Shown here in pieces: positions 30,815 through 47,068 of a DNA stretch of 64,000 bases (within the stretch, counting starts at the first letter, position 1; every line of letters starts with the position of its first letter). Source of the stretch: a virus. Where the stretch lies: IMG/VR virus record IMGVR_UViG_3300009068_000023. The stretch is one strand, 5' to 3'. The translations under genes were made by a program, and so were the position numbers. Under the pieces are notes generated by a model. That model was not told the DNA's origin. It did not search any database and was given only the letters and a program-made list of their open reading frames with translations.

Positions 30815-31862
30815 TACACATTATGGTGCAAGAGGCGATAGCGTACACTTTTCAAACTACTTTGAAAGATTTTATAGTAGCGTTTTCTTCCCGTACCTAG
30901 ACGAAAATAATATTAGTACTGTACTACATCTTGGTGATGTATTCGACAGACGTAAGTATATTAACTTTGCATCACTAAAAGCATGCCGTGATTATTTCTT
31001 TGAGCAGTTAAAGAAAAGAAATATCGATACGCATATGATTGCAGGTAATCATGATACGTTCTATAAGAACACGAACGAAGTAAATGCACTAGATCTGTTG
31101 CTTGGTGAATACGATAATATTAAAGTTTACGATACACCTCAAGATGTTGCTTTTGACGGAACTGATATCCTAATGATGCCGTGGATATGCTCAGGCAACT
31201 ACCAAGACTGCATGAGAGCAATCGACAATACCAAAGCACAAATTCTATTCGGCCACCTAGAGATTAGTGGCTTTGAAATGTATAGAGGCAGTATTAATGA
31301 CGGCGGTATGGATAGCGTTACGTTTAGTAAGTTCGATCTAGTATGTTCAGGGCACTTCCACCACCGCTCATCAAGAAATAATATTAACTATCTTGGTACG
31401 CCTTATGAAATTACTTGGTCTGACTTTAACGACCAAAAAGGATTTCATATATTTGATACCGATACAAGAGAGCTTAAATTTATTCCTAACCCTCTGACGA
31501 TGTTTAGAAAAGTCTTCTATGATGATTTGAATAAGAATGCTGCTGAAGTTATCGTAGATGATTTTAGCGCTTACACTAATTGTTATGTTAAGGTGATTGT
31601 TAAAAACAAAACTAACCCTATGTGGTTTGATATGTTTATTGAGAAGCTAGAAAAAGCAAACATATTAGATATCCAGGTAGTAGAAGACCACCTGAATCTA
31701 GATCTCGAAGATGACGATGATATCATTAATGAAGCAGAAGATACTTTATCTATTCTGAACAAGTATGTGGATCAATTTGATGCAGAAGTCGACAAAGTAA
31801 AGCTTGAAAATCTACTTAGAACGCTTTATAATGAGGCAGTCTCCATTGAGTATACTATCTAA
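30792..31862 (+). CDS. gp47: Recombination endonuclease subunit (Mre11/SbcD-like)
   Basis: DTHYG, LGDVFDRRK, GNHD, GHL, SGHFH; likely TTG start. Confidence 0.95.
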   Translation: MKIAIVTDTHYGARGDSVHFSNYFERFYSSVFFPYLDENNISTVLHLGDVFDRRKYINFASLKACRDYFFEQLKKRNIDTHMIAGNHDTFYKNTNEVNALDLLLGEYDNIKVYDTPQDVAFDGTDILMMPWICSGNYQDCMRAIDNTKAQILFGHLEISGFEMYRGSINDGGMDSVTFSKFDLVCSGHFHHRSSRNNINYLGTPYEITWSDFNDQKGFHIFDTDTRELKFIPNPLTMFRKVFYDDLNKNAAEVIVDDFSAYTNCYVKVIVKNKTNPMWFDMFIEKLEKANILDIQVVEDHLNLDLEDDDDIINEAEDTLSILNKYVDQFDAEVDKVKLENLLRTLYNEAVSIEYTI

Positions 31863-33577
31863 TGATTTTATTTAAAAATATACGCTGGAAAAACTTCTTA
31901 TCTACTGGTAACGCGTTTACTGAGATTGACTTTCTACGCAACCGTTCAACGCTTATTGTCGGTGAGAATGGTGCTGGAAAGTCTACTCTTCTTGACGCTC
32001 TTTGCTTTGTTCTTTACGGTCGCCCGTTTCGTAAAATTAACAAGCCACAGCTTCTTAACACTATCAATGGTAAGGGGTTAGAAGTACAGTTAGAGTTTAC
32101 TATCGGTAAGCATGACTATAAAGTCGTTCGAGGCATGAAGCCCAACGTCTTTGAAATCTATCAAAACGGCAATATCATTAATCAGAATGCAGAGTCAAGA
32201 GAATATCAAGAGATGTTCGAGAAAAGCATTCTGAAGCTTAACTATAAATCTTTCTCTCAAATTGTTATTCTTGGTAGTGCATCGTTCGTACCGTTCATGC
32301 AACTACCTGCAGCTCATCGCCGAGAAGTTATTGAAGATCTGTTAGACATACAAATCTTCTCGACTATGAATACTCTGCTCAAAGATAAGATTGCAGTTAA
32401 TAAAGCAGACATAGTTGATAATGATTTTAAGATAAAGAGTATTGCTGAGAAGATTGAACTGCATAAGAAGTATCTTGAGTCGTTGAAGCAAAACAACGAC
32501 GAGATTATTAATGAAAAGCTAGCTATTATAAAGACTCATGAGGAAGGCATTAATGAGTCGCAGCTTACTATTAATGAGCTCACTACACAGATTAATGAGC
32601 TGGATAGTGAAACCAGTCAGATAGAAACCCTACGTACGGAAGATAGAGATATTCGAGAACTCTATCGTAAGATGTATGAGAAGTCAGTAACACTTATTAA
32701 AGAAAATAGTTTCTATAACGACAACGACAATTGCCCTACTTGTAAGCAAGGCATCTCAGATAATTTTAAGTGTGAGTCGAAGCAAAAGAACGACGATGAC
32801 ATATCAGTTATTGGTAGAGGCTTATCAAAGCTAGACAAAAAGCTTGCTATTATCAATGAAAAGATCGCAGCATACAACGAATCGCTTACAGTTCAGAAGA
32901 ACCTGCAGCAGAAGGTAAACGAGCTTAACAATAAGATATCTACGCTTAATATGTTTATTACGTCTCTTAACAATGAGATAGAACAGATTAAGTCTAATAC
33001 TAAGCATATTGATGCTAGCTCAAAGGAAATTAAAACTCTAAGAGAAGATCTTAAAGTTAGAATTGACCTAAAGGAATCGTTAGTTGACGATAGGCATACG
33101 TTGAGTACTGCTGCTATTCTACTTAAAGATTCTGGTATTAAGACCAAAATTATTAAGCAGTATATTCCAGTAATTAACAAGCTGATTAATAAGTATCTTG
33201 CATCAATGGACTTTTTCGTTAACTTTGAACTTAACGAAAACTTTGAAGAATCTATTAAGTCGAGGTTTAGAGATGAATTTAGCTATGAATCGTTTAGTGA
33301 AGGCGAAAAGATGCGTATCGACTTGGCTCTACTATTTACCTGGAGAGCTATTGCAAAACTTCGCAATTCTGCTAGTACTAACCTTCTTATCCTTGATGAA
33401 GTTTTCGATAGCAGCTTAGATGTTTCGGGTACGGATGAATTCTTAAAGATTATTCAGGGCATTACAGGTGAAACGAATATCTTTATTATTAGCCATAAGG
33501 GCGATGCCTTGATGGATAAGTTCCATTCCGTTATTAAATTTGAAAAACATAAGAACTTCTCAAGAATTGCTAATTAA
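31862..33577 (+). CDS. gp46: Recombination ATPase subunit (Rad50/SbcC-like)
   Basis: GENGAGKS, CPTC zinc hook, FSEGEK signature, LILDEVFD. Confidence 0.96.
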   Translation: MILFKNIRWKNFLSTGNAFTEIDFLRNRSTLIVGENGAGKSTLLDALCFVLYGRPFRKINKPQLLNTINGKGLEVQLEFTIGKHDYKVVRGMKPNVFEIYQNGNIINQNAESREYQEMFEKSILKLNYKSFSQIVILGSASFVPFMQLPAAHRREVIEDLLDIQIFSTMNTLLKDKIAVNKADIVDNDFKIKSIAEKIELHKKYLESLKQNNDEIINEKLAIIKTHEEGINESQLTINELTTQINELDSETSQIETLRTEDRDIRELYRKMYEKSVTLIKENSFYNDNDNCPTCKQGISDNFKCESKQKNDDDISVIGRGLSKLDKKLAIINEKIAAYNESLTVQKNLQQKVNELNNKISTLNMFITSLNNEIEQIKSNTKHIDASSKEIKTLREDLKVRIDLKESLVDDRHTLSTAAILLKDSGIKTKIIKQYIPVINKLINKYLASMDFFVNFELNENFEESIKSRFRDEFSYESFSEGEKMRIDLALLFTWRAIAKLRNSASTNLLILDEVFDSSLDVSGTDEFLKIIQGITGETNIFIISHKGDALMDKFHSVIKFEKHKNFSRIAN

Positions 33578-33581
33578 CATT

Positions 33582-34259
33582 ATGAATAATCAAAATATAG
33601 ATTTAAAGTATATTAATTTAACCATTAACAACGAAGTTCACAAAAAATTTTGGCCTTCAGATGATAAAATTTGTTTAAATGTTATAAGCAAAGATCTAGA
33701 CAAATTTATACCGTTTATTGAAAAATTAAAAAATAAAAATGTAGTAGTTCAAGCAGGTGGTAATTGTGGACTATATCCTTTTATTTTATCTTTCTTTTTT
33801 AAAAAGGTAATAACATTTGAGCCTATTTTCTTTCTTTTTCATGTATTAACTTTAAATTGCAACCGAACCAACATCTATAAATTTAATTGTGCATTAAGTG
33901 ATGAAGGTGGATTTACAAATATGAGTAATCCACAAGAAATTAATGTAGGCACATTTAAACTTGATTCTTCTTCTAACAACACTACTATCATTAAAACGTC
34001 TCTGGATTCTTTAAATTTAGAAGAAGTAGATTTTTTAATGCTGGATGTAGAAGGTCATGAAATGGAAGTTCTTAAAGGAGCAGAGCAAACAATAAGCAGA
34101 TGTAATCCTGTAGTATTAGTAGAAACGTCACCAGATACACATGATCGTGTTATAGAGTATTTTAAGGCAAAAAAATATACAATTGAACACACTTTTAATC
34201 CTTATGTTTCTTCGTGCAATATTCTATTGACACCTTCTAACTATAAAAAGAAAAAATGA
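33582..34259 (+). CDS. FkbM-family methyltransferase
   Basis: VVQAGGNCG, TFEP, LMLDVEGHEMEVLKGA; start placed at ATG 33582. Confidence 0.8.
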   Translation: MNNQNIDLKYINLTINNEVHKKFWPSDDKICLNVISKDLDKFIPFIEKLKNKNVVVQAGGNCGLYPFILSFFFKKVITFEPIFFLFHVLTLNCNRTNIYKFNCALSDEGGFTNMSNPQEINVGTFKLDSSSNNTTIIKTSLDSLNLEEVDFLMLDVEGHEMEVLKGAEQTISRCNPVVLVETSPDTHDRVIEYFKAKKYTIEHTFNPYVSSCNILLTPSNYKKKK

Positions 34260-34780
34260 TACTTGACTTAATTAGCCCTGATCATCCATTACTCAGAACA
34301 AAGTTAGAGAAATTTAACTTTAATAACCCACCTATTAATCCTATAGAATTAGTCAACAATCTTATTGAGACTATGGTAAAGGAAAAGGGAATGGGGTTGT
34401 CTGCTAATCAGGTAGGTCTACCATACCGAGTATTTGTTTTGTATTCTGCAGAACCTATGCCAATGTTTAATCCTACCATTGTAGATACGACTACTGAATT
34501 GGTTCTTTTGGATGAAGGTTGCCTATCATATCCTAATCTATTCTTACCGATCAAGAGATCAAAGTCAGTTAAAGTCCGCTACCAGGATGCATTCGGTGAA
34601 TACCATACAGAGACCTATACAGGTATGACTGCACGTTGCATTCAGCATGAGCTTGATCATTTAAACGGGGTAGATTATACTAAGAGAGCTAATCCTATTC
34701 ACCTTGCAAGGGCTAAGAATCAAAAGAAGCTCCTAGATCGCAAAGTAAAGAAGTTTAAGCACCTTACACAAGCTATATAA
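34256..34780 (+). CDS. def: Peptide deformylase
   Basis: GMGLSANQVG, EGCLS, QHELDHLNG. Confidence 0.95.
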   Translation: MILDLISPDHPLLRTKLEKFNFNNPPINPIELVNNLIETMVKEKGMGLSANQVGLPYRVFVLYSAEPMPMFNPTIVDTTTELVLLDEGCLSYPNLFLPIKRSKSVKVRYQDAFGEYHTETYTGMTARCIQHELDHLNGVDYTKRANPIHLARAKNQKKLLDRKVKKFKHLTQAI

Positions 34781-34817: not shown

Positions 34818-35675
34818 ATGTCAAAGATTAAAGTCGCAGAGCTTTTCTATAGCCTGCAAGGAGAAGGGCGCTATGTTGGTGTGCCTTCTATCTTCCTAAG
34901 AACTTTCGGTTGTAACTTTCAATGCGCCGGTTTCGGCATGCCTATAGGACAACTTAGTGATGAGAGAAATAATGTCGCTGTTCATGTTTCTAATTACAAC
35001 AACTACGAAGAGCTTCCTCTCGTTCATACTGGATGTGACTCTTACGCTAGTTGGGATCCTCGTTTTAAGCATCTTAGCCCTGTACGATCTACTGACGAAA
35101 TCGCCGAAAAGATTTTTGAGCTTCTTCCAGAACATAAGTGGAAAAAAGAACACCTAGTTATTACGGGCGGAGAACCTCTTCTAGGATGGCAGCGTTCGTT
35201 TCCAGACCTCATTAAGAGAGGCGACTTTATCTATAATCTTGAAAATCTTACATTTGAAACTAACGGTACGCAACCATTAACAGACGACTTTAGGTACTTT
35301 CTGTTTGAGGAGTTTACAAGATTTGGGCGTAGTTTTGATCGACTCACATTCTCAGTATCACCTAAGCTACCTTGCTCTGGAGAAAAATGGGAAGATGCTA
35401 TCAAGCCAGAAGTTATTCACGATTATCAAGGCATCGGTCATACCTACCTCAAGTTTGTAGTAGCAACAGAACAGGATGTAGAAGACGCAAAGAAAGCTGT
35501 CAAGGAATATAAAGACGAAGGCTTTTGCGGAGATGTATATCTGATGCCAGTGGGCGGTACCGAAGATGTATATTACTTAAACAACAAGCAAGTCGCTGAA
35601 CATGCTATGAAGCTAGGATGGAGATATTCCCCGCGACTGCAAGTAGATATTTGGAGAAACGCATGGGGGACATGA
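34818..35675 (+). CDS. queE: 7-carboxy-7-deazaguanine synthase (radical SAM)
   Basis: ELFYSLQGEG...FLRTFGCNFQC...GCDS (split CxxxC..C), ITGGEP, ETNGT, SPK. Confidence 0.92.
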   Translation: MSKIKVAELFYSLQGEGRYVGVPSIFLRTFGCNFQCAGFGMPIGQLSDERNNVAVHVSNYNNYEELPLVHTGCDSYASWDPRFKHLSPVRSTDEIAEKIFELLPEHKWKKEHLVITGGEPLLGWQRSFPDLIKRGDFIYNLENLTFETNGTQPLTDDFRYFLFEEFTRFGRSFDRLTFSVSPKLPCSGEKWEDAIKPEVIHDYQGIGHTYLKFVVATEQDVEDAKKAVKEYKDEGFCGDVYLMPVGGTEDVYYLNNKQVAEHAMKLGWRYSPRLQVDIWRNAWGT

Positions 35676-36097
35676 GCACCTATGACTTTACTTACGATAT
35701 GTTTAACGAAGCAATCGATAACATTGTTCGTCAAGTAAATAATAAAAAAATCAAATACAACTATATCGTTGGTCTTACAAGAGGCGGTTTAATTCCTGCT
35801 ACGGTTCTTAGCCATAGACTTAAAGTGCCTATGCTTGCAAGTAACTGGGATACCGATAGAAAGAAGCCTTCGCTTACGCTAATGGACATCTTGGATAATC
35901 CAAGAAATAAAGTACTATTAGTAGATGAAATATTGGATACCGGCAAGACGATACAGACATTTATGGAAATACATGGCAAGACCGATGTTGCGGTTGTTGT
36001 ATGGAATAAGGAACAACCAGTTATTCCAGACTATCATCATATGACAATAAAGCGTTCAGAGTTTTCTGATTGGATTGAATTTTGGTGGGAGAAGTAA
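35672..36097 (+). CDS. Type I phosphoribosyltransferase (Gpt-like)
   Basis: VGLTRGGLIP, PRPP loop VLLVDEILDTGKT, C-terminal WIEFWWE; ATG overlaps the queE stop. Confidence 0.85.
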   Translation: MSTYDFTYDMFNEAIDNIVRQVNNKKIKYNYIVGLTRGGLIPATVLSHRLKVPMLASNWDTDRKKPSLTLMDILDNPRNKVLLVDEILDTGKTIQTFMEIHGKTDVAVVVWNKEQPVIPDYHHMTIKRSEFSDWIEFWWEK

Positions 36098-36098
36098 A

Positions 36099-36566
36099 AT
36101 GGGAAAGTTTTATAGTACAAAGACATACGGAAATGATCGAGGTCTAAGCTGCTGCTTTAGACAATGGAAAAGCACTCATAGCCATTGCAGTTTGTTGCAT
36201 GGGTATTCTATTGGTGTGCATGTTACGTTCGAATGCGATAGCTTAGATGAACGCAACTGGGTTATGGATTTTGGTGGGCTGAAAGAGTTTAAAGAATGGC
36301 TTGAGTATATGTTCGACCATACTTTGATTCTAGCAGAGGATGATCCTGAGCTTAATACTCTGAAGCAATTGCACAGTATGGGTGTTGCAGATGTTAGAGT
36401 AGTACCCGGTGTAGGTTGTGAGCGTTTTGCTGAGCTGGCCTATAATCAACTAGCATTAATGCTTGATGATTGGAGAGAAAATGGCACTCTATTGAATCCT
36501 ACAGTTCGCGTTAAGTCAGTAGAAGTATTTGAGCATGCAGGTAACTCGGCATTTTATGAAGGCTAA
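36099..36566 (+). CDS. queD: 6-carboxytetrahydropterin synthase
   Basis: HCSLLHGY, WVMDFG, FDHT, VEVFEH. Confidence 0.9.
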   Translation: MGKFYSTKTYGNDRGLSCCFRQWKSTHSHCSLLHGYSIGVHVTFECDSLDERNWVMDFGGLKEFKEWLEYMFDHTLILAEDDPELNTLKQLHSMGVADVRVVPGVGCERFAELAYNQLALMLDDWRENGTLLNPTVRVKSVEVFEHAGNSAFYEG

Positions 36567-36568
36567 TA

Positions 36569-37249
36569 ATGAAATATACTGAAATATTGCGTAATAAACT
36601 CATTAACAACAAATTAAGGTACTGGGCCGGTGATAATATTTCCTCAATTCTCAATGATGCAGATCGTCAGGTTATTGTTGAAGAAGCTACAAAAGCGTTT
36701 GAAGGAGTACTGGATGCTCTGCTCATTGACCGGGAAAATGACCCCAACTCAAAAGGAACGGCAAAAAGACTAGCCAAGATGTATGTACATGAGATTATGT
36801 CGGGTAGATATTATCCAGCACCTGATGCAACTGCATTTCCTAATATTGGTGAAGAAGCCTATAAAGGTATGCTCGTAGTTCGTTCGGAACTAAAGTCAAT
36901 GTGCTCGCATCATCATCAGCCAGTAACTGGAGTAGGCTATATTGGTATTATTCCAGGTGATAAGGTTATTGGTCTATCGAAGTATACTCGTATTGCTCAA
37001 TGGTGCGCACGTCGAGGCACTCTTCAAGAAGAATTGTGTAATGATATTGCTCGTGAGATTCGAAAAGCAACCGAAAGCAATAACGTTGCAGTATACTTAA
37101 AGCTTAAGCATGGTTGCTGTCAGAACCGTGGTATTAACGCGCACGATAGTACTACTCAAACTACAGTACTATACGGCGAATTTAATAACGCCGACGTCAA
37201 GAAAGAGTTCTTTGACAATATTCAAATTCAAGAACTAACTACTCGTTGA
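36569..37249 (+). CDS. folE: GTP cyclohydrolase I
   Basis: SMCSHHHQP, IGLSKYTRI, LQEE, HGCCQNRG. Confidence 0.95.
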   Translation: MKYTEILRNKLINNKLRYWAGDNISSILNDADRQVIVEEATKAFEGVLDALLIDRENDPNSKGTAKRLAKMYVHEIMSGRYYPAPDATAFPNIGEEAYKGMLVVRSELKSMCSHHHQPVTGVGYIGIIPGDKVIGLSKYTRIAQWCARRGTLQEELCNDIAREIRKATESNNVAVYLKLKHGCCQNRGINAHDSTTQTTVLYGEFNNADVKKEFFDNIQIQELTTR

Positions 37250-37300
37250 GCTAATATTGAAGTTATATTAATATATAATCTCCCTACTATATTATATTTT

Positions 37301-37732
37301 ATGTGGTATAAAAACTCTGAAGGTAGATACGGCGATTCCGGCCGCAAAGGTGATAGTGGCGAAAGCGTAGTCGAACGCTACCTTATCAAAAATAATATTC
37401 AGTATGTTAAGAAAGAGGATCCTTATAGCCAAGTAAAGCTTAAGATCGATTTTTTAGTAGACGATGTTCCTATGGATGTCAAGACGAACATCTATAAAGG
37501 ACACCTTGGAGTAGAAGTATATACTAACGATCTTAATGAAGGCTGGATTCATACTACCACAGCTAAAGAAATATATGGTGTAGACCTTATCTACGAAGGT
37601 ATCTACAAGTATAACGTTGATACTATGAGAAAGTATGTAATGAAAAACAAACACCGTGCAAAGCCTACTAAGCAAGGTGCTTACATACTCTGGGTGTCGA
37701 AGAATGAACCTTTTATCGAGAAACTGCAATGA
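37301..37732 (+). CDS. Putative PD-(D/E)XK nuclease
   Basis: GDSGE..VERYL...IDFLVD...DVKT pattern of the restriction-endonuclease fold. Confidence 0.55.
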   Translation: MWYKNSEGRYGDSGRKGDSGESVVERYLIKNNIQYVKKEDPYSQVKLKIDFLVDDVPMDVKTNIYKGHLGVEVYTNDLNEGWIHTTTAKEIYGVDLIYEGIYKYNVDTMRKYVMKNKHRAKPTKQGAYILWVSKNEPFIEKLQ

Positions 37733-38517
37733 AAATCGCTCACGAAGCCCCCTTAAGCATATTCAATAAAGTACAAGAAGTAACCGACTACGACTATGCC
37801 CTTGTACACCTTTTTGAAGAGAATGAAAAGTATTATGACTTCTTTGAGAAGGCTTTGCTTAAGAAGCGTGAGGTTATTCTAGACAATTCAGTCTTTGAAT
37901 TGGGTACTGCTTTCGATAAGGACAAGTATTATGGCTGGATTGAAAAGCTAGATCCGACCTATTATATTATTCCAGATGTACTAGAAGATGCACAGCAGAC
38001 TGTTAAGAATGTAAAAGACTGGCAGCAATTGCCTGGCAAGAAGACTATAGGTGTAGTCCAAGGCAAGAGCGTTCAAGAGGTAGTTTGGTGCTATCAAGAA
38101 ATTGAACCTCTAGTAGATAAGGTTGCTATTTCGTTTGATTATTCGTTCTTTATTAACGAAGAGATTAACGGTACTCTGCCTACCAAATATCATCACTACA
38201 TGTATGGTCGAGATGCGTTGATTAATTATATGCTTAATATTGCTAACGTAATTAATATTAATAAACCCCATCATCTACTAGGATGTGGTTTGCCTCAAGA
38301 GTTCGATGTATATCGAGGTTACAGCTGGATTGATTCTATGGATACGTCTAATCCAGTAGTTGCTGGTATCAAAGGTATTAGGTATAATGGTAAACATGGC
38401 TTAGAAGACAAGCCAACAGAAAAGCTTTTTACTCTAATTAACTCCGATGTAAACGATGAGCAGATGAGTAAAATTCTCTACAACATAGAATGTTTTAGGG
38501 CTATAGTTAATGGATAA
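37729..38517 (+). CDS. dpdA: TGT/DpdA-like transglycosylase (DpdA3-type)
   Basis: ILDNSVFE, IPDV, GVVQG, HLLG, DSMDTS TIM-barrel motifs inside a Que cluster. Confidence 0.72.
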   Translation: MKIAHEAPLSIFNKVQEVTDYDYALVHLFEENEKYYDFFEKALLKKREVILDNSVFELGTAFDKDKYYGWIEKLDPTYYIIPDVLEDAQQTVKNVKDWQQLPGKKTIGVVQGKSVQEVVWCYQEIEPLVDKVAISFDYSFFINEEINGTLPTKYHHYMYGRDALINYMLNIANVININKPHHLLGCGLPQEFDVYRGYSWIDSMDTSNPVVAGIKGIRYNGKHGLEDKPTEKLFTLINSDVNDEQMSKILYNIECFRAIVNG

Positions 38518-39055
38518 TAAACCTTGGATTGCTTTATTCTCACAAACAGGCTCCGAAATAGCAGCGCTATCTGCAAAGATAGGCGTTGCTCCTAGCCTTA
38601 TTTTAACTAACAATATCGATTCTAGCACGTGGCATCCGTTCATTCGCGAGCAAAAGACTATCAGTGGCGATCATGAAACGATCATGCAGACCCTTCTAGA
38701 CGAAAATAAAGATAACAACCATCTAGTTACGCTGCACGGATACTTAAAAATTATTCCGAATAATATCTGTAGCGCGATGGACATCTATAACGGGCATCCT
38801 GGTCTTATTACTCGGTACCCGGAACTTAAAGGGTTAGACCCTCAGGAAAAGGTCGCAGAAAATATCTCGCGATTTGTGTTTATTGGCAGTGTAGTACATA
38901 AAGTAACTAATGACGTTGATGGCGGAGAAATATTGTCGTCATTTGCAGTTCTTAATGGATGTAATAGCAGAGAAGAAGTATACTCTAATTTAAGAATAAC
39001 GTCGTTGCATGCTTGGCTAAAATTTTTCAAGGACAATAAATGCGAATTGGTATAA
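38510..39055 (+). CDS. PurN-like formyltransferase (DpdN-like)
   Basis: LFSQTGS, LHGYLKI, YNGHPG, GSVVHKVTNDVDGGEI (NxH..H..D catalytic set). Confidence 0.8.
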   Translation: MDNKPWIALFSQTGSEIAALSAKIGVAPSLILTNNIDSSTWHPFIREQKTISGDHETIMQTLLDENKDNNHLVTLHGYLKIIPNNICSAMDIYNGHPGLITRYPELKGLDPQEKVAENISRFVFIGSVVHKVTNDVDGGEILSSFAVLNGCNSREEVYSNLRITSLHAWLKFFKDNKCELV

Positions 39056-39591
39056 GCGGTGCTCAATCTACTGGTAAGACAACGTTATTAAATGCTTTGA
39101 GATCAGAACCAGTCTTTAAAGACTATGAAGTCTGTAACGAAGTAACTAGAAAGGTTGCGTCGTATGGTCTGCCTATTAACGAAGATGGTAATGATATTAC
39201 TCAAGAGCTGATTATGAATCAGCATATTGTTAATCTTGCTATGCATGATAATATGATTACAGATAGAACTGTGCTAGACGGTCTAGTATATTCAAAGTAT
39301 TTACGTGAGAATAGTAAGATTACAGCTGGTACGTTAAAGTATGTTGAGAGAATCTTTGATCGGATGATTCAAGGATATGATTTTATCTTTTACGTTGCAC
39401 CTGAGTTTGAGATTAAGAACGATGGCGTAAGGTCTATTAATACGTTCTTTAGAGACAGAGTAGTTAATATTTTTAATGAAGTTATCTCACAGAAAAATGT
39501 ACCGGTTTATAATGTAAAAGGAACTGTAAGAGAGAGAGTTCAGTTTGTACTTAATGTATTAGAAATTAATAAGGAAATTACTGATAAATGA
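39040..39591 (+). CDS. P-loop nucleotide kinase (NadR/AAA_28-like)
   Basis: GAQSTGKTT, ITDRTVLD, DGVR. Confidence 0.78.
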   Translation: MRIGISGAQSTGKTTLLNALRSEPVFKDYEVCNEVTRKVASYGLPINEDGNDITQELIMNQHIVNLAMHDNMITDRTVLDGLVYSKYLRENSKITAGTLKYVERIFDRMIQGYDFIFYVAPEFEIKNDGVRSINTFFRDRVVNIFNEVISQKNVPVYNVKGTVRERVQFVLNVLEINKEITDK

Positions 39592-40517
39592 GCGATAATC
39601 AAAAGACACTAAATGACCTAGTATCAGTACACCTAGGCAAGGCTGGGGATGGTTCCGTAGTTAAGCCCTATGTTACCCCTGATGACGTTGATCCGTCTTT
39701 GCTGGTAGCTGTGCCTAGACAGCTTAATCGTACAGAATATGGCCTTCAAGATGATAATCTACCCTTTGTTGGTAGTGATGCGTGGAATGCGTATGAGTTC
39801 TCTACTTTGCTTAAGAACGGATTTCCTGTATCAGGCTGGCTAAAGTTTGTCTATAATGATAATACGCCTAATATCGTAGAATCAAAGTCAGTTAAGTTGT
39901 ATCTTAATTCATACAATATGGCAAGGCTTATTGAGTCGGTTGAAGAGTTATGGATGATCGAAGACAAGATCGGTGAAGATCTAACTAAGGCTACTGGTGG
40001 TTATGTCTGCGCGCAGATCGCTATTAATAATGTAGATGGTGTACGACCCATTACTGGTGACTTCGTATCGCTAGAAAACTATTGCAATATCGATAAGATG
40101 ACTTTCGACAAGTATAATGAGAGTTCTGATATTCTAGAAGTAGTGCCTAGTATTGGCAGGTATGAGCGTTGGCGATCGCATTCGCTTCGTTCGAACTGTC
40201 GAGTAACTAATCAACCTGATTGGGGCGATGTTTATATTCATATTAAGGGTGAGAAGGCAGTTACTCCTGAATCTCTGTTGCAGTATATTGTAAGTATGCG
40301 AAAAGAGAATCATTTCCACGAAGAGATTTGTGAATGTATTTACAAGCGCCTGCACGACCTTCTTGCACCTGAAGAGCTGCTAGTTGCATGTCTATACACT
40401 CGCCGCGGTGGTATTGATATCAACCCTGTTCGAGCATCGAGTTGGGAAGTGTTAAATTTATATGCAGGTAACTTGACGGGTGAGTATAGCTTCTGCACTA
40501 AGACGATGAGACAATAA
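39588..40517 (+). CDS. queF: NADPH-dependent preQ0 reductase (two-domain QueF)
   Basis: VESKSVKLYLNS QueF motif, RSNCRVTNQPDWG, HFHEEICE, YTRRGG. Confidence 0.93.
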   Translation: MSDNQKTLNDLVSVHLGKAGDGSVVKPYVTPDDVDPSLLVAVPRQLNRTEYGLQDDNLPFVGSDAWNAYEFSTLLKNGFPVSGWLKFVYNDNTPNIVESKSVKLYLNSYNMARLIESVEELWMIEDKIGEDLTKATGGYVCAQIAINNVDGVRPITGDFVSLENYCNIDKMTFDKYNESSDILEVVPSIGRYERWRSHSLRSNCRVTNQPDWGDVYIHIKGEKAVTPESLLQYIVSMRKENHFHEEICECIYKRLHDLLAPEELLVACLYTRRGGIDINPVRASSWEVLNLYAGNLTGEYSFCTKTMRQ

Positions 40518-40717
40518 TGAGTTCACCAGATAAGAACGTAAATGAAATTTGTGACGAATTTATTGCTAGATCTTTACACGGATATAACAAATACGGCGTT
40601 ACAACAGAACGAACTGATTTAAATTTCGATCAATGGATTCAGCATCTTAAAGAAGAGCTTATGGATGCTGTAGTTTATATTCATAGAGTGCAAAAGGAAC
40701 GAAATGAAGTTAAGTGA
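40517..40717 (+). CDS. Small all-alpha NTP pyrophosphatase-like protein
   Basis: RSxxGxxKYG...WIQHLKEELMDAVVY acidic helix pattern. Confidence 0.55.
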   Translation: MSSPDKNVNEICDEFIARSLHGYNKYGVTTERTDLNFDQWIQHLKEELMDAVVYIHRVQKERNEVK

Positions 40718-41459
40718 TGCAATGGCAGGTCTGCCTGATACTGATAAGAATGTAGTTGCTGTACTATCTGGAGGACTTGATTCATCTGTAATGTTAATGC
40801 TTTTGATTGAGAAGTATGGTGCAGATAAGGTACATGCAGTTTCATATGATTATGGTCAGAAGCAATGGATGGAATTAAAGCGTGCCAGGAACTTAACAGA
40901 CAGCCTAGGTGTAGAGCATAAGATTTTTGAATTGGATATTCTAGGTAAGATCGCAAGAACGATGTCTGCCAACATTCAAGGGTCTGAGGTTGATATGCCT
41001 AAGATTAAGGATGTTCTAGGTGACCCGCAGCCGGTAACTTATGTACCGTTCAGAAATATGATTATGCTCTCGCTTACTCTTGCACTAGCAGAAGCGTCCG
41101 ATGCATCTCATATCTTTACAGGCTTACAAGTGCATGACGAATATGGTTACTGGGATACTACACAGCGTTTTGTAGATAGTATGAACGCAGTTGCAACACA
41201 GAACCGTAATCATAAGGTTGAGATTGTTGCACCGTTTAGTCAACTCAGCAAGTATCAAGAGATTGAGCTATGCAAGGAAATGGGCATGGTTAATTATCTA
41301 GAAAGCACACTTACTTGCTATAATCCAGATGGCAGCGGTAAGAGCTGCGGTGTATGTCCATCGTGTGCCGAACGCATTGCTAACTTTGCAAAAGCAGGAT
41401 TAAAGGATCCAATCGAATATAGTGTGCCTATTCCTTGGGATAAACTGATAGCTGCGTAA
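40704..41459 (+). CDS. queC: 7-cyano-7-deazaguanine synthase
   Basis: LSGGLDS, YGQK, TYVPFRN, TCY..CGVCPSCAER. Confidence 0.95.
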   Translation: MKLSDAMAGLPDTDKNVVAVLSGGLDSSVMLMLLIEKYGADKVHAVSYDYGQKQWMELKRARNLTDSLGVEHKIFELDILGKIARTMSANIQGSEVDMPKIKDVLGDPQPVTYVPFRNMIMLSLTLALAEASDASHIFTGLQVHDEYGYWDTTQRFVDSMNAVATQNRNHKVEIVAPFSQLSKYQEIELCKEMGMVNYLESTLTCYNPDGSGKSCGVCPSCAERIANFAKAGLKDPIEYSVPIPWDKLIAA

Positions 41460-41924
41460 ATGAAAACAATATACTTGGATATGGATGGGGTAATAGCTAA
41501 CTTCGATAAAGACTATTATTCTATCTTTGGTGTAAATTGTAGAGAGGACCCGGATAAGGGTAACTGGAATAAGTTTATTATCCTTGAGGGCTTTAAAACT
41601 CTTAGTATGATGCCAGATGCTCAAGTTCTCTTAGATTATTTACAAAGCAACTATACTAATATTATTATCCTTTCTTGCGCCGGTCGCAAAGAAACATATA
41701 CTGAAGTATGTTTGCAGAAGATTAAATGGTTAGAGAATAATAAGATAGGACATTTACCACGTGCATTTACCTTTACTAAGAAGGAAAAAGGACTATTCGG
41801 TCATCCAAGTTGCATCTTAATTGATGATAGTATACAATGTATAGAACCATTCGTACAAAATAACGGCAATGGTGCTTTACATACCTCAGCCGTAGATACT
41901 ATTAATCAACTTCAAGGCTTTTAA
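41460..41924 (+). CDS. HAD-family 5'(3')-deoxyribonucleotidase-like protein
   Basis: YLDMDGVIA, KxxWL, LIDD. Confidence 0.8.
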   Translation: MKTIYLDMDGVIANFDKDYYSIFGVNCREDPDKGNWNKFIILEGFKTLSMMPDAQVLLDYLQSNYTNIIILSCAGRKETYTEVCLQKIKWLENNKIGHLPRAFTFTKKEKGLFGHPSCILIDDSIQCIEPFVQNNGNGALHTSAVDTINQLQGF

Positions 41925-41925
41925 T

Positions 41926-42600
41926 ATGTGTGCAATTGTAGGTTCATTCGATACTAATAAACTACACGAGCTAGTTAAGCTTAACATGCATAGAGGTAGC
42001 TATTCGTATTCGTTCTCGCTATACGATTGCTATACTGGCAGGCTTACAGTTATGAAGCAGGACTTCGGTGAGCCTGATTTTTCGGTCATTAACGTACCTC
42101 AACGTACATATGGTATTGTGCATGTGCAGGCTCCGACTACAGAGTCGGCCTCGATGGAATCGATTCATCCTGCAACTGCTTATCCATTATCAACTTTTAC
42201 TAAAGATAAGCATAACGTATTGAAGGAATTTAATACGTGCCTATGGCATAATGGTATTCTAAAAGAATCGGCTATAAAGAAGCTACAGCAATCTAATGGA
42301 GAAGTAAAATGGGATACCATGCTGATGCTTTGTGAGCTTATTGGGTCAGGATGGAGCTCATTCAGTAAGTTTGATGGAAGTTTTAGCTGTTTGTTTTATA
42401 ATAGCTACTCGATGTTTTTGTTCCGCAACGAAATATCGCCTATGTTTATAGACGACGAGCTTAATATCTCTTCGAGCAGGTTTCAGGGCTCAAGAGAGAC
42501 AGAAGCTAATAAAGTATTGAAAATGGAGTTTGACTTTAAGTCTGCTGCTCCTATCTTTACTTTTAAGACGATTGAGAATCCGTATTATTTTGGAGATTGA
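41926..42600 (+). CDS. Class II (Ntn) glutamine amidotransferase, stand-alone
   Basis: N-terminal MCAIVG nucleophile Cys, RG, HxxAPT, HP, WHNG. Confidence 0.75.
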   Translation: MCAIVGSFDTNKLHELVKLNMHRGSYSYSFSLYDCYTGRLTVMKQDFGEPDFSVINVPQRTYGIVHVQAPTTESASMESIHPATAYPLSTFTKDKHNVLKEFNTCLWHNGILKESAIKKLQQSNGEVKWDTMLMLCELIGSGWSSFSKFDGSFSCLFYNSYSMFLFRNEISPMFIDDELNISSSRFQGSRETEANKVLKMEFDFKSAAPIFTFKTIENPYYFGD

Positions 42601-42602
42601 CA

Positions 42603-43103
42603 ATGAAGCATGTATTTGGTAGAGGTGCAGGAACAACTCTTTCACACGTCGATTCTGAATCAGACGTACAACCTAATGCGGTTGATTTGAGACTAGGAAA
42701 GGTCTTTAAGATTAGAAATGAATTGTTTGAGATTACTAATCATGATAAGAAGCATCGAGGTTCAGATGAAGTTAAGCCAGATGTAGACGGATTTTATTAT
42801 TTGGAACCAGGCTCATACGAAGTGATTATGAAGAATACAATCGCTGTAGGGCTTAATGAAGCAGGCTGGGTAATCACACGCAGCACACTTAACAGGAACG
42901 GTGTTTTTCTTACATCCGGTCTCTATGATTCAGGGTATAGTGGAGTAATGGCAGGGGTTATGCATGTAACGTGTGGTCCTGCGCGTATTAAAAAGGGAAC
43001 CAGAATCGGACAATATATCTGCTTTGATGCGGAGACGTTGCATCTTTACGATGGTGATTATGGTAGCAACAAAGAACACGATAAGAAATACGGAGAAAAT
43101 TGA
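42603..43103 (+). CDS. dUTPase/dCTP deaminase family protein
   Basis: QPNAVDLRL, TRSTLNRNG, YDSGYSG, RIGQ. Confidence 0.85.
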   Translation: MKHVFGRGAGTTLSHVDSESDVQPNAVDLRLGKVFKIRNELFEITNHDKKHRGSDEVKPDVDGFYYLEPGSYEVIMKNTIAVGLNEAGWVITRSTLNRNGVFLTSGLYDSGYSGVMAGVMHVTCGPARIKKGTRIGQYICFDAETLHLYDGDYGSNKEHDKKYGEN

Positions 43104-44056
43104 TGCAGATTCAAATTCCAATTCAGGATCTACAAAAGAAGAAGCTCTTTCTTGCCACACCAATGTATGGCGGTCAGTGCGCAGGCATGTATACTCGTAG
43201 CGTTGCAGACTTGTCTGCTATGTGTGCCAAGTATAATATTCCTATTCAGCTTTATTATTTGTTTAATGAGTCGCTTATTACTCGTGCACGCAACTACTGT
43301 GTCGATGAGTTTATGCGTTCTGATTGCACGCACTTGATGTTTATCGATAGTGATATCGGCTTTAATCCTCAAGACGTTCTAGCTATGTTAGGTCTTATGA
43401 CTGACGAAAGCCCTTATGATATTATGGGTGGACCTTATCCTAAGAAGTGTATTTCTTGGGAGAAGATCAAGCAAGCCGTTGATAAGGGCTTTGCTGACGA
43501 AGATCCTAACACTCTCGAGAAGTATGTCGGTGACTATGTATTCAACCCAAAGGGTAATACTGCCTCGATTCCTCTTGGTGAGCCTGTAGAAGTGCTTGAG
43601 ATTGGTACCGGGTTTATGATGGTACAACGACGTGCATTCGAGAAGTATAAGGAATCATACCCATACCTCTCGTACAAGCCTGACCATGTACGTACAGAGT
43701 TCTTTGATGGTAGTCGTGAAATCCATGCTTACTTCGATTGCATTATCGATAGAGGCTTTAGCTATCAGACGCTGCATAATCTTCTAGAGGATGTTGCGAA
43801 TGGTAAGACCGATCTACAAGATGCTGCTAAGACGATTGTAGATAACGAGCAGAAGGCTTCGAAGCGTTATCTATCTGAAGATTATAACTTCTGCTATCAT
43901 GCTGAGAAGATAGGTCTGCGTGTATGGTTCTGCCCATGGATGAAGCTACAGCACGTTGGTTCATATATCTTCGGTGGTAGCTTGGTCGATCTAGCTCAAA
44001 TTGGTGCTGCTGCTACTGCTGATGTGCAGAAGATTGGCGGCAAGAAGAAGAAATGA
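43103..44056 (+). CDS. Conserved T4-like GT-A fold (glycosyltransferase-like) protein
   Basis: ATPMYGG, ESLITRARN, FIDSDI, GTGFM, YLSEDY. Confidence 0.7.
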   Translation: MQIQIPIQDLQKKKLFLATPMYGGQCAGMYTRSVADLSAMCAKYNIPIQLYYLFNESLITRARNYCVDEFMRSDCTHLMFIDSDIGFNPQDVLAMLGLMTDESPYDIMGGPYPKKCISWEKIKQAVDKGFADEDPNTLEKYVGDYVFNPKGNTASIPLGEPVEVLEIGTGFMMVQRRAFEKYKESYPYLSYKPDHVRTEFFDGSREIHAYFDCIIDRGFSYQTLHNLLEDVANGKTDLQDAAKTIVDNEQKASKRYLSEDYNFCYHAEKIGLRVWFCPWMKLQHVGSYIFGGSLVDLAQIGAAATADVQKIGGKKKK

Positions 44057-44718
44057 AACTAGATAATAAAACTCTCCAGATACTTAAGAACTTTTCTTTG
44101 ATTAACAGCTCCATGCGTTTCAAAGAAGGTAATACGCTTACCGTAGTATCGAGTAATAAGAATATTTTAGCGAGAGCGAACATTGCCGAGGGTTTCCCTC
44201 GGCAGTTTGCAATTAGTGATTTGCCTAGACTGCTAGGAGTTCTATCACTATTTGATACGCCTGAAATCGAGTTCACAGATACTCATTTGATTATCTCTGC
44301 TAATAATCAAAAAGTTAATTTTACCTTTGCCGATCCACGCATGATCGTAACGACAGACGCAAATGGTATTAATATGCCAGATGCTGAAGTTGAGTTTACT
44401 CTTACACCTGAGGACTTCTCGCGTATTATGAAAGCTCACGGTATTATGGGATTGCCTGATGTAGCAGTAACTGGTGAAGATGGTGAGATGTATATCGAAG
44501 CTACTAATGTGCGTAGCCCGACTACAGACAACTATAGAATTCATCTAGGCGCAATGCCAGATCCATCTCGTGAGTTTAAGATGGTATTCCGGCCGGAGTA
44601 TTTAAAGCTAATGAATGCCACGTACAACGTGCGCATTTCTTCCAGGGGCATTGCTGAATTTAAGAGCGATGATATTACCTACTGGATTACTACAGAAACT
44701 ACTTCGACGTTTAATTGA
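44053..44718 (+). CDS. gp45: Sliding clamp
   Basis: TLQILKNFSLINSS...FAISDL..LLGVLSLF; precedes gp44. Confidence 0.9.
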   Translation: MKLDNKTLQILKNFSLINSSMRFKEGNTLTVVSSNKNILARANIAEGFPRQFAISDLPRLLGVLSLFDTPEIEFTDTHLIISANNQKVNFTFADPRMIVTTDANGINMPDAEVEFTLTPEDFSRIMKAHGIMGLPDVAVTGEDGEMYIEATNVRSPTTDNYRIHLGAMPDPSREFKMVFRPEYLKLMNATYNVRISSRGIAEFKSDDITYWITTETTSTFN

Positions 44719-44719
44719 C

Positions 44720-44914
44720 ATGAAGAAAATAGATAATCTTGAAGAATTTTTTGCGGCATGCAAAGAAATTAAGATTATCTGTAGTAATGAAGATTCAGCA
44801 CCCGTTGCTAAGTTTTTAATAAAGAACGGGTTTTTTATACTTGCAGGTGAAAATTACGTTATGGGTTTATTGAAAAGCACAACAGGCAAGGTGGATATTG
44901 ATGCTGTCGAGTGA
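44720..44914 (+). CDS. Hypothetical protein (64 aa)
   Basis: Fills the gp45-gp44 gap; ATG at 44720. Confidence 0.5.
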   Translation: MKKIDNLEEFFAACKEIKIICSNEDSAPVAKFLIKNGFFILAGENYVMGLLKSTTGKVDIDAVE

Positions 44915-45848
44915 TGCAGAATTTCTATGGGTTGAAAAGTATAGGCCTCGTAATATTGACGATACTATTCTTCCAGAAGAGCTTAAAAATACCTTTAAGA
45001 CGTTTGTATCGCAGAAGGAAGTACCTAACCTATTATTGACCGGTCGTGCAGGAACCGGCAAGACTACTATTGCTCGCGCCCTTCTAGAAGAAATCGGTTG
45101 CGACTATATTGTCATTAACGGTAGTATGAATGGTAATATTGATACTCTAAGAAACGAAATAGCACAATTTGCTTCGTCTATTTCGTTTACTGGTTCACGC
45201 AAGTATGTTATTCTAGACGAAGCAGATTATCTCAATCCTCAGAGTACTCAACCGGCGTTGCGTAACTTTATGGAAGAGTATTCTAAGAATTGCGGATTTA
45301 TTCTTACATGCAACTTCCGTAACCGTATTATTGAGCCTATCCATTCACGGTGCTCAATCGTCGAGTTCAAGATTCCTAAGGATGAGAAGCCTAAGCTTGC
45401 TATGCAGTTCTACAAGAGACTTCTAAAGATCCTAGAAGACGAGAACGTTACTAGCGATAGTAAGACTCTTGCTGCATTCGTAGAACGATACTTTCCAGAC
45501 TTCCGCCGCACTATTAACGAGCTACAGCGATATAGTGCAACGGGTAGTATTGACTCTGGCATACTATCTAACTTTCAAGAGAGTAAATTTTTAAACTTAG
45601 TAGCCTTTATTAAGGATAAAAGCTTTACTAATGTAAGAAAATGGGTAGGAGAGCATTCAGACGTAGAAGATGCTGTATTGTTTAGGACCTTTTATGATAC
45701 CGCATCAGAACACGTTAAAGCAAGTTCTATCCCACAACTGGTACTTCTTATTGCAAAGTACCAGTACAACTCAGCATTCGTTGCTGATAAGGAAATTAAC
45801 CTGGTTGCATTCCTTACCGAAGTCATGGTTGAAATAGAGTTCAAATGA
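44901..45848 (+). CDS. gp44: Clamp loader large subunit
   Basis: WVEKYRP, GRAGTGKT, LDEAD, SRC. Confidence 0.96.
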   Translation: MLSSDAEFLWVEKYRPRNIDDTILPEELKNTFKTFVSQKEVPNLLLTGRAGTGKTTIARALLEEIGCDYIVINGSMNGNIDTLRNEIAQFASSISFTGSRKYVILDEADYLNPQSTQPALRNFMEEYSKNCGFILTCNFRNRIIEPIHSRCSIVEFKIPKDEKPKLAMQFYKRLLKILEDENVTSDSKTLAAFVERYFPDFRRTINELQRYSATGSIDSGILSNFQESKFLNLVAFIKDKSFTNVRKWVGEHSDVEDAVLFRTFYDTASEHVKASSIPQLVLLIAKYQYNSAFVADKEINLVAFLTEVMVEIEFK

Positions 45849-46252
45849 ACCCGTTTGATTTTGTCAATGCAATAAACTATACCAAGAAAGATCTAATGAC
45901 TGGCTCAGAGAATGATGAGCTGGTAGAAAAAGAGTATGTGCCTTTTTTAGTTAATAAGTCTCTATCTTATTTCCCCGATACTATTCTCTACGCGAATGAG
46001 ATAAACCGATACAATAATGTAGATAAGAAATTACAGTTTCATTATCTACTAAATAGTATCAGGCCTCAGAAGCGTTTTGCAAAGTGGGTGAAGAAGGTTG
46101 AAAGTGAAGATATTTCCGCTGTTTGTCAATATTATAAGTATAATGTTGACAAGGCGTCTCAAGTCTTATCGATACTTTCAGCTGAGCAGTTAGAGACTAT
46201 AAAACAAGAACTAAAAAAGGTGAATGATGACCACTATAGACGATCTTATTGA
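45845..46252 (+). CDS. gp62: Clamp loader small subunit
   Basis: YVPFLVNKSLSYFPDT..ANEIN...LLNSIRPQKRFAKW. Confidence 0.92.
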   Translation: MNPFDFVNAINYTKKDLMTGSENDELVEKEYVPFLVNKSLSYFPDTILYANEINRYNNVDKKLQFHYLLNSIRPQKRFAKWVKKVESEDISAVCQYYKYNVDKASQVLSILSAEQLETIKQELKKVNDDHYRRSY

Positions 46253-46625
46253 AATAAGATTGGTAGAAGAAGATGATTTTTTAAAAGTAAGAGAAACGCT
46301 AACCCGTATTGGTGTAGCCTCCAGAAAAGATAAAAAGCTCTATCAATCCTGTCATATACTTCATAAGCAAGGCCGCTACTACATAGTTCATTTCAAAGAA
46401 CTATTTCTTCTAGACGGCAAGCCCTCTAATTTCTCCGAAGATGATATAGCACGTCGCAATGCTATTATCAATCTCCTTGCAGAATGGGAACTCATACACC
46501 TTATAGATCCCCGCGCAACTCAAGAACCAACAGCACCTCTATCTCAAATCAAAGTTTTATCATATAAAGAAAAGCATGAGTGGGAATTAGTAGCAAAATA
46601 CAATATAGGCAGAAAAACAAAGTAG
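46224..46625 (+). CDS. regA: Translational repressor
   Basis: DDFLKVRETLTRIGVASRK..LYQSCHILHKQGRYYIVHFKELF. Confidence 0.97.
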   Translation: MMTTIDDLIEIRLVEEDDFLKVRETLTRIGVASRKDKKLYQSCHILHKQGRYYIVHFKELFLLDGKPSNFSEDDIARRNAIINLLAEWELIHLIDPRATQEPTAPLSQIKVLSYKEKHEWELVAKYNIGRKTK

Positions 46626-46674: not shown

Positions 46675-46768
46675 CCTCCTGTAGTTTAATGGTAAAACAC
46701 CCGGCTTATACCCGGCATAGGCTCTAGATGGGGGCACGTTACAGGTTCGAGTCCTGTCGGGAGGACCA
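46675..46768 (+). tRNA. tRNA-Ile(UAU) with an atypical long variable arm
   Basis: CCTCCTG/CGGGAGG acceptor, CT-TAT-AC loop, TTCGAGT T-loop, encoded CCA. Confidence 0.8.
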
Positions 46769-46775
46769 TGTTATC

Positions 46776-46858: not shown

Positions 46859-46872
46859 AATTGAGAAATAAT

Positions 46873-47064: not shown

Positions 47065-47068
47065 GTTT

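Follow-up and report, generated by a model that had tools for sequence, protein, structure and literature searches.

A predicted DpdA3/DpdN-type 7-deazaguanine DNA modification island with an accessory nucleotide-metabolism module in a T4-like phage

Which modified base would be made by a cluster of 7-deazaguanine genes in a T4-like phage, and would guanine be replaced on the DNA or on free nucleotides before replication? The question is raised by IMG/VR virus record IMGVR_UViG_3300009068_000023, a 64,000-nucleotide stretch of virus DNA (the window, meaning the whole stretch that was analyzed) that carries such a cluster at 34818-43103, with every gene on the + strand. An earlier note on this DNA had predicted formylated preQ1 in DNA, possibly manufactured at the nucleotide level. 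We read the region as a 7-deazaguanine DNA hypermodification island of the DpdA3/DpdN type, carried by a T4-like phage and predicted with good confidence to make DNA of the formylated dPreQ1 (fdPreQ1) type through the transglycosylase DpdA3 and the formyltransferase DpdN. This first part of the earlier prediction is well supported, because the core of the island is homologous to and syntenic with that of the Flavobacterium phage immuto_2-6A, whose DNA has been measured and whose G is all fdPreQ1. The prediction of fdPreQ1 DNA for such clusters is already in the literature and is not new. The second part stands only in part: non-orthologous kinases and nucleoside triphosphate (NTP) hydrolases do recur beside DpdA3, but the phosphoribosyltransferase is dispensable and the kinase module is optional.

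The DpdA3-type guanine transglycosylase of the island is a protein of 262 amino acids (aa) encoded at 37729..38517. It has no Pfam match, and it is identified by homology to the founding members of the DpdA3 subfamily, CGPG_00065 of phiST, gp056 of CP220 and the DpdA of immuto (PMC10516641), and by a tRNA-guanine transglycosylase (TGT) fold. In tblastn alignments over 81-100% of the protein, identity is 52.6% to the DpdA of immuto_2-6A, 41% to CP220 gp056 and ~25% to phiST CGPG_00065, and a DpdA3 profile matches the founding members at 268-399 bits. An AlphaFold2 (AF2) model built from 65 representatives has the TGT-like (beta/alpha)8 fold with a pLDDT of 96.8, and the top 50 PDB matches to the model in Foldseek are all TGT or ArcTGT structures (E 1.7e-7 to 7.5e-6, TM 0.56-0.68). 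The best PDB match of the family profile is bacterial DpdA 7UI4, with an E-value of 0.12 that is weak alone. In the alignment to 7UI4, an HLLG motif falls on Leu236 and D205 falls on Asp256, the nucleophile of bacterial DpdA. Residues D52, D83 and D205 are invariant in the 65 representatives, with D52 and D83 equated with Asp95 and Asp130 by strand position only. The large DNA-contacting insertion of bacterial DpdA, Ins8, is missing from DpdA3. From the conserved residues and the modeled fold, DpdA3 is predicted to exchange guanine for a 7-deazaguanine.

DpdA3 is widespread, with a profile search that detects >531 IMG/VR loci and, in a large protein library, 1511 clusters at 50% identity. Two of the library representatives, P0029 and P0118, are DpdA3-DpdN fusions of 447 aa, which argues for DpdA3 and DpdN working one directly after the other. 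A further library protein, P0074, is a fusion of DpdA3 to DUF3310. Prediction of a complex between DpdA3 and u66, the 66-aa product of a small open reading frame (ORF) of the cluster, gave a score of 0.00, which decides neither for nor against one.

DpdN, a PurN-like preQ1/dPreQ1 formyltransferase, is encoded at 38510..39055 and matches PF00551 at 1e-06. The name DpdN was given to the PurN paralogue by Cui et al. 2023 (PMC10516641). The DpdN profile matches glycinamide ribonucleotide (GAR) transformylases (PurN) in the PDB at 3e-13, the catalytic triad of Asn94, His96 and Asp137 is invariant, and identity to the DpdN of immuto_2-6A is 41%. An N-terminal SxxGS loop is also kept, which we take to be like the GAR-phosphate loop of PurN. 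The conservation of these genes was assessed by profiling every cluster gene against 86 loci, 41 of which have good flanks, in a census that took in the 80 closest DpdA3 loci. In this census the universal gene is DpdA3, and DpdN adjoins it in 40 of the 41 well-covered loci.

The genes that would supply the precursor were assigned, as were the others, by Pfam, NCBIfam, PHROG and PDB profile searches of the window ORFs. By these family matches, and by homology and fold for the DpdA-like gene, the inventory of the earlier note is largely borne out: folE, queD, queE, queC, a true queF, the DpdA/TGT-like and PurN-like genes, a phosphoribosyltransferase (PRTase), a kinase, a HAD nucleotidase and a dUTPase-family gene are all present. 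QueE, the radical SAM 7-carboxy-7-deazaguanine synthase (34818..35675), matches Pfam Radical_SAM at 1.3e-06 and five NCBIfam QueE models at 4e-16 to 8e-11, every one below its cut-off, and related loci have copies of 63-93% identity at the corresponding position. QueD, a 6-carboxytetrahydropterin synthase (36075..36566; PTPS 3.6e-18, TIGR03367 3.8e-11), is 44% identical to QueD of immuto_2-6A, and FolE, a GTP cyclohydrolase I (36569..37249), matches PF01227 at 2.5e-38 and NF006824 at 1.3e-38. QueF (39588..40517) is the bimodular NADPH-dependent preQ0 reductase, with both QueF_N (1.1e-28) and QueF (2.6e-19) above Pfam cut-offs and a match to TIGR03138 of 9.5e-68 that, at 228.7 bits, is under the cut-off of 293. 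Its motif E(S/L)K(S/A)hK(L/Y)(Y/F/W) is present as ESKSVKLY, and the catalytic Cys lies in CRVTNQPDW. QueC, the preQ0 synthase (40704..41459), matches PF06508 at 6.1e-54 and, above cut-off, TIGR00364 at 2e-50. QueE, QueD, FolE, DpdN and QueF are each found in 40-41 of the 41 well-covered loci, and QueC in 35. No queA, queG, queH or canonical tgt was found among the ORFs scanned, a scan that was not exhaustive in the structural half of the window; within that limit, this agrees with the absence of queA, queG and queH claimed earlier. In some related clusters, a membrane transporter of the Vut_1/YhhQ type follows QueC (L077:13478-14083, and also in L064, L044, L045, L050, L056, L061, L062 and L076). 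This family includes a preQ0/preQ1 importer, which hints at precursor uptake in those clusters.

One gene of the cluster that the earlier note did not name encodes a class II (Ntn) glutamine amidotransferase of 224 aa (41926..42600), with the N-terminus MCAIVG. It is recognized by an atlas feature score of 0.95-0.96 and by TM values of 0.72-0.84 to GATase_6/7 clusters, GlmS and PurF. The amidotransferase follows QueC in 23 of the 41 well-covered loci and probably supplies ammonia to QueC. It is missing from immuto_2-6A and from part of the T4-like loci, and is therefore accessory. A stand-alone amidotransferase near QueC looks like a split form of the glutamine amidotransferase (Gat)-QueC fusion of dG+ phages, a fusion that gives dG+ in phage 9g (PMC6884629).

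Most of the remaining genes of the cluster are related to nucleotide metabolism. The PRTase (35618..36097, with a start that is probably near 35666) is a type I purine enzyme similar to Gpt, the xanthine-guanine PRTase (XGPRT), and matches PF00156 at 5.8e-13. Among NCBIfam models it comes closest to xanthine PRTase (8.8e-14, below cut-off), its PDB matches are purine PRTases and XGPRT (1.6e-09 to 2e-05), and its loop for phosphoribosyl pyrophosphate (PRPP) is VLLVDEILDTGKT. The third acidic residue of the PRTase motif [DE][DE]IxD[ST]G is invariant across all homologues. In 6-oxopurine PRTases this residue contacts the purine N7, and it is replaced in adenine, uracil and orotate PRTases. As 7-deazaguanines have no N7, retention of the residue means that salvage of the guanine released by DpdA3 fits the PRTase better than synthesis of a preQ nucleotide.

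The kinase (39040..39591) is an AAA_28 P-loop nucleoside or nucleotide kinase, with matches to PF13521 (4.8e-17) and to phrog_2107, 'thymidylate kinase' (3e-25). Its PDB matches, to the NadR ribosylnicotinamide kinase, deoxynucleoside kinase and thymidylate kinase, are all at weak E-values, and the substrate therefore cannot be read from them. Homologues lie beside DpdA3 in immuto_2-6A (36% identity) and CP220 (31-33%).

The 66-aa ORF at 40517..40717, u66, had been described as similar to an NTP pyrophosphatase, but it matches no NTP pyrophosphatase family by sequence or fold. It has no Pfam match at E-values up to 10 and no match by PDB profile, Foldseek, VIA-wide or atlas shape search; hhalign gives a probability of 0.2% against the PRA-PH protein of immuto_2-6A and nothing significant against DUF3310. 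AF2 predicts two helices (pLDDT 88), a hairpin too small for a full MazG domain, in which E31-x-x-D34 and E47-x-x-D50, the residues to be compared with the EXX[ED]...EXXD metal-binding motif of MazG, are invariant or nearly so. It is ~50% identical to residues 7-63 of phage proteins of 193-199 aa that carry their MazG/PRA-PH domain at 120-188, and thus corresponds to the N-terminal partner domain of MazG proteins of ~195 aa. These longer relatives adjoin ThyX and ribonucleotide reductase in podophage contigs. By sequence, u66 is a MazG-associated domain tied to nucleotide metabolism.

Two further genes flank the amidotransferase. The upstream one (41460..41924) encodes a HAD protein similar to 5'(3')-deoxyribonucleotidases (phrog_2643 3.7e-27, a weak NT5C match of 0.001, and a DMDG motif), and is an accessory gene found in 9 of the 41 well-covered loci. 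The downstream one (42597..43103) encodes a dUTPase-family, DCD-like dNTP pyrophosphatase (PF22769 1.1e-14, PF00692 5e-06, NF002598 dUTPase 1.3e-25), in which motif III is present as GLYDSGYSG and the deaminase Glu is absent. At this position, all 40 of 40 T4-like loci have a dUTPase-family gene, a PRA-PH/MazG gene or both. The idea of 'minimal' loci with no nucleotide-metabolism gene at all was considered and rejected, given that such loci carry DUF3310 and a PRA-PH/MazG gene.

The conservation of the nucleotide-metabolism genes differs from that of the core. The kinase is present in 31, the PRTase in 24 and either u66 or a PRA-PH/MazG protein in 27 of the 41 well-covered loci. Kinase-less relatives carry a DUF3310 (PF11753) gene of 80-120 aa in the place of the kinase, between dpdN and queF; examples are L055:11295-11540 and L039:11295-11558, together with 21 other related loci. 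Among the 68 loci that cover the dpdN-queF interval, 23 have DUF3310 only, 39 the kinase with u66/MazG, 2 the kinase with DUF3310 and 4 the kinase alone. DUF3310 occurs together with u66/MazG in none of the 68, and u66/MazG is found only alongside the kinase. The PRTase is present in 28 of these loci, and within 10 kb only with the kinase (28 vs 0), while one kinase-less contig has a PRTase homologue elsewhere. We class the kinase, u66/MazG and the PRTase as an accessory module. One relative with a complete, terminally repeated genome (160,495 bases) keeps DpdA3 and DpdN along with the genes for preQ1, the amidotransferase and the dUTPase-family protein, but has no PRTase and no AAA_28 kinase, the latter by a search that had a positive control. 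No homologue of T4 gp1 was found in five relatives that include this genome, by a search without a positive control; this lends no support to the idea that the AAA_28 kinase and a gp1-type dNMP kinase replace each other from phage to phage. In a quick tree of DpdA3, loci switch between the kinase layout and the DUF3310 layout at least 4 times among DpdA3s of 50% identity or more. The pattern is therefore not the effect of a single clade, and very similar DpdA3s work with and without the kinase, such that the same class of substrate is expected.

P-loop kinases of three unrelated families adjoin DpdA3 across its lineages: AAA_28 in this clade, immuto_2-6A and CP220, AAA_18/33 in phiST and MA9V-3, and an HD-AAA_33 fusion in CP220. 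The phiST and MA9V-3 proteins CGPG_00066 (L011:7466-7945) and XQU63046 (L012:7507-7977), annotated as hypothetical, are small AAA_18/AAA_33 P-loop kinases encoded directly upstream of DpdA3, and CP220 gp055 (L002:7868-8899) joins an HD phosphohydrolase and an AAA_33 kinase in one protein. NTP hydrolases of four families are found beside DpdA3 in different lineages, and every type of DpdA3 locus has an NTP-hydrolase gene, of the MazG/PRA-PH, HD or dUTPase type.

The gene content suggests a route. FolE, QueD, QueE and QueC would convert GTP to preQ0, with the adjoining amidotransferase as the probable source of ammonia, and QueF would reduce preQ0 to preQ1. DpdA3, as a minimal TGT-fold transglycosylase that keeps its catalytic Asp residues, would swap guanine for the 7-deazaguanine, and DpdN would formylate the aminomethyl group. 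The expected outcome would be virion DNA with most or all of its G replaced by fdPreQ1, and with resistance to restriction enzymes. What the analysis establishes is the identity of the genes, their synteny with a phage of measured DNA chemistry, the modeled fold and the conserved active-site residues; which base results, how far G is replaced and whether formylation precedes or follows insertion are inferences. As to where the exchange takes place, we lean slightly toward a DpdA3 that acts on DNA, with the kinase, u66 and the Gpt-like PRTase, and also the nucleotidase, as an optional nucleotide-pool module. The PRTase would return the released guanine to GMP, and thence to GTP for FolE, and the module would have no part in supplying a modified dNTP.

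Several points weigh against this account. The product in this phage is predicted from genes alone, whereas the DNA of immuto_2-6A was chemically measured, and published expression tests of DpdA3 in E. coli failed (PMC10516641). The three unrelated kinase families directly beside DpdA3, and the MazG/PRA-PH, HD and dUTPase-type NTP hydrolases that are also there, form the pattern of pre-replicative pathways. Guanine salvage would account for the PRTase, yet it leaves unexplained why CP220, a phage with no PRTase, has a kinase. Finally, the pair of Gat and QueC resembles the Gat-QueC fusion of 9g that yields dG+ (PMC6884629), and by that analogy the product could differ or be mixed.

The most substantial alternative, which we regard as possible but rather unlikely, is that DpdA3 exchanges the base of free dGMP or dG rather than of DNA, and that the complete replacement of G is pre-replicative. 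In such a route, the dUTPase-family or MazG-type pyrophosphatase would take dGTP to dGMP, and the HAD nucleotidase would perhaps take it on to dG. After the base swap, DpdN would formylate the product, as PurN does an amine linked to ribose-5-phosphate, the AAA_28 kinase would re-phosphorylate it and gp43 would incorporate the modified dNTP, with the PRTase left to salvage guanine only. The recurrence beside DpdA3 of non-orthologous kinases in CP220, in phiST and MA9V-3, and in immuto_2-6A with this clade is in keeping with this proposal, as are the NTP hydrolase in every locus type, the DCD-like or MazG gene at one position in the 40 T4-like loci, and the restriction of u66/MazG to loci with the kinase. 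So too are the lack of the DNA-binding Ins8 insertion in DpdA3 and the conserved SxxGS loop of DpdN. The DpdA1 cluster of 9g, by comparison, with partial and sequence-specific insertion, is without a kinase, PRTase or MazG. Replacement is complete in all three of the DpdA3 phages measured, and an ADG nucleoside in CP220-infected cells is reported in PMC10516641, as cited there from Crippen 2019. Yet 23 of the 68 loci, and the complete genome, have no AAA_28 kinase, PRTase or gp1 homologue (this last by the search without a positive control), and only an 80-aa DUF3310 gene stands in their place; the DUF3310 protein would have to cover the role of the kinase in those relatives. The layouts interchange at least 4 times among similar DpdA3s, phiST has no AAA_28 kinase, and many phages carry dUTPase and MazG genes for ordinary housekeeping. 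The size and pI of DpdA3 were also considered as a sign of a non-DNA substrate, and this was rejected as non-discriminating, since the DNA-acting DpdA1 of 9g, of 317 aa and pI 5.6, is likewise small and acidic (the median pI of DpdA3 is 5.5).

The other alternatives are less probable. The earlier note had proposed that the PRTase, kinase and pyrophosphatase supply a modified dNTP. In a full form of this route, analogous to ToyH in toyocamycin synthesis, the PRTase would join preQ0 or preQ1 to PRPP, the kinase and the host ribonucleotide reductase and NDK would lead to the modified dNTP, and DpdA3 would be unneeded for bulk replacement. Although the PRTase, kinase and HAD phosphatase all lie inside the cluster, and a PRTase is tied to the kinase within 10 kb, present in immuto_2-6A and found elsewhere in the phiST genome, the proposal is not upheld. 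No PF00156 match is found in CP220, whose DNA is 100% dADG, nor in MA9V-3, in a 96%-complete relative that carries both the kinase and u66, or in the complete 160,495-base genome; the PRTase is thus dispensable for modification. It is DpdA3, not the PRTase, that is universal, the module is lacking in the 23 loci, the PRTase is closest to xanthine-guanine PRTases, and all homologues keep the Asp that contacts N7 in 6-oxopurine PRTases, an atom missing from 7-deazapurines. We therefore consider this route quite improbable. A little more credible, but still improbable, is that the same machinery makes another product: unformylated dPreQ1, dG+ via Gat and QueC, or a mixture with partial replacement. 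The amidotransferase near QueC would be in keeping with dG+, given the fusion of 9g (PMC6884629), and DpdN activity has never been demonstrated in vitro (PMC10516641). However, 40-41 of 41 loci retain QueF and DpdN, the DpdN triad is intact, the amidotransferase is accessory, and immuto_2-6A, which has QueF and DpdN, shows fdPreQ1 only (PMC10516641). Lastly, the genes could serve queuosine modification of host tRNAs or of the phage tRNA-Asn GUU, rather than DNA modification. FolE, QueC, QueD, QueE and QueF are the bacterial preQ1 pathway, and a tRNA-Asn(GTT) is among the 12 phage tRNAs, but canonical TGT, QueA, QueG and QueH are lacking in the scanned ORFs and DpdN has no role in queuosine synthesis. 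The transglycosylase is instead DpdA3, whose three tested carriers have modified DNA (PMC10516641), and a role in tRNA modification is hardly to be expected.

Within the cluster, an accessory ORF of 143 aa (37301..37732) overlaps the start of dpdA3 (ATGA). It has a PD-(D/E)XK-like motif, with E21, D50 and D59-x-K61 invariant in 9 homologues, and no Pfam, PHROG or PDB profile match. The ORF is present in just 14 of the 86 loci, at two different positions, and is therefore not core; its motif and distribution suggest a mobile or optional nuclease.

The phage background is T4-like. The late sigma factor gp55, gp47 and gp46 are encoded upstream of the cluster at 30239-33577, and gp45, gp44, gp62 and RegA downstream at 44053-46625, followed by the tRNA genes. 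A B-family gp43 polymerase is encoded at 52766-55303, and UvsX and gp41 are also further downstream. The gp46-gp45 interval has fifteen co-directional genes on the + strand, whose neighbors overlap or abut throughout in an operon-like manner. Between gp46 and QueE are an FkbM-type methyltransferase (33540-34259) and a peptide deformylase (34256-34780), the latter kept at the same position before QueE in 33 related loci. At the other end, just before gp45, a conserved gene for a protein of 318 aa (43100..44056; phrog_1574 1.8e-62), from a large phage family, has weak glycosyltransferase hints (GT21/GT2 at E 0.009-0.03). Every T4-like relative of the cluster retains this gene, which is probably a boundary gene outside the pathway. 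The twelve tRNA genes (46675-49321) include the tRNA-Asn(GTT), with its queuosine-family anticodon, and a tRNA-Ile(TAT) of 94 nt. A dCMP deaminase (50782-51252; PF00383, 5e-23) is encoded outside the cluster, and the phage thus has further pyrimidine-pool genes. When the cluster was compared by megablast with 50,697 phage records, none matched, and the phage is therefore without a close sequenced isolate.

Environmental T4-like phages often carry clusters of the fdPreQ1 type. DNA modified in this way should withstand many restriction enzymes, and it will affect the sequencing and cloning of such viromes. That DpdA3 is flanked by unrelated kinases and NTP hydrolases or by DUF3310, and is fused to DpdN or to DUF3310, sharpens the question of whether complete replacement of G occurs before or after replication.

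Among known systems, the closest is that of immuto_2-6A, whose DNA has 345,000 fdPreQ1 per 10^6 nucleotides and no dG (Cui et al. 2023, PMC10516641). It shares with the window QueD, QueE, the PRTase, FolE, an NTP pyrophosphohydrolase, DpdA, the PurN-like protein, a 'thymidylate kinase' and QueF in near-identical order, with 24-53% identity between the proteins. The NTP pyrophosphatase of immuto_2-6A adjoins DpdA3, and a PRA-PH/MazG protein is found where the window has u66. However, immuto_2-6A is not T4-like and has a family A polymerase, whereas the window cluster is set between gp46 and gp45 in a phage whose polymerase is gp43. Its QueC is elsewhere in the genome, it has no amidotransferase, and the HAD nucleotidase, the dUTPase-family gene and the 143-aa ORF are extra in the window. 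Cui et al. 2023 proposed that all 7-deazaguanine modifications are post-replicative, and mentioned neither the kinase nor the PRTase (PMC10516641).

The two other DpdA3 phages measured have 100% dADG (CP220) and 100% dDG (phiST) in their DNA (PMC10516641). CP220, a Campylobacter phage of the genus Firehammervirus, is also a T4-like myovirus, with a 41% identical DpdA3 and a homologue of the AAA_28 kinase immediately downstream. It differs in the lack of QueF, DpdN and the PRTase, in the HD and AAA_33 kinase fusion upstream, and in a product that is an amide rather than formyl-preQ1. phiST (Cellulophaga) and MA9V-3 (Chryseobacterium) have a distant DpdA3 (~25%) beside FolE, QueD, QueE, an NTP hydrolase (MazG or DCD-like) and a P-loop kinase, but that kinase is of the AAA_18/33 type, the locus has no QueC, QueF or DpdN, and the QueD paralogue DpdL leads to 7-deazaguanine. 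The PF00156 PRTase of phiST is outside its DpdA3 locus.

Bacterial DpdA and the phage enzymes DpdA1 and DpdA2, of the Dpd system, 9g and CAjan, share with DpdA3 the TGT fold, the Asp nucleophile and an HLLG-type base-stacking Leu. DpdA3 is shorter than bacterial DpdA, and the DpdA1 cluster of 9g lacks the nucleotide-metabolism genes noted above. Insertion in the Dpd system, 9g and CAjan is post-replicative, partial and sequence-specific, at 0.1-30%, whereas replacement in the DpdA3 phages is complete (PMC10516641). The pathways for hydroxymethylcytosine in T4 (the gp56 dCTPase, gp42 and the gp1 kinase) and for dZ in S-2L (MazZ, DatZ and PurZ) are similar in layout only: the window cluster has no homology to gp42 or PurZ, and what it shares with these pathways is the combination of a dNTP hydrolase, a base-modifying enzyme and a dedicated kinase.

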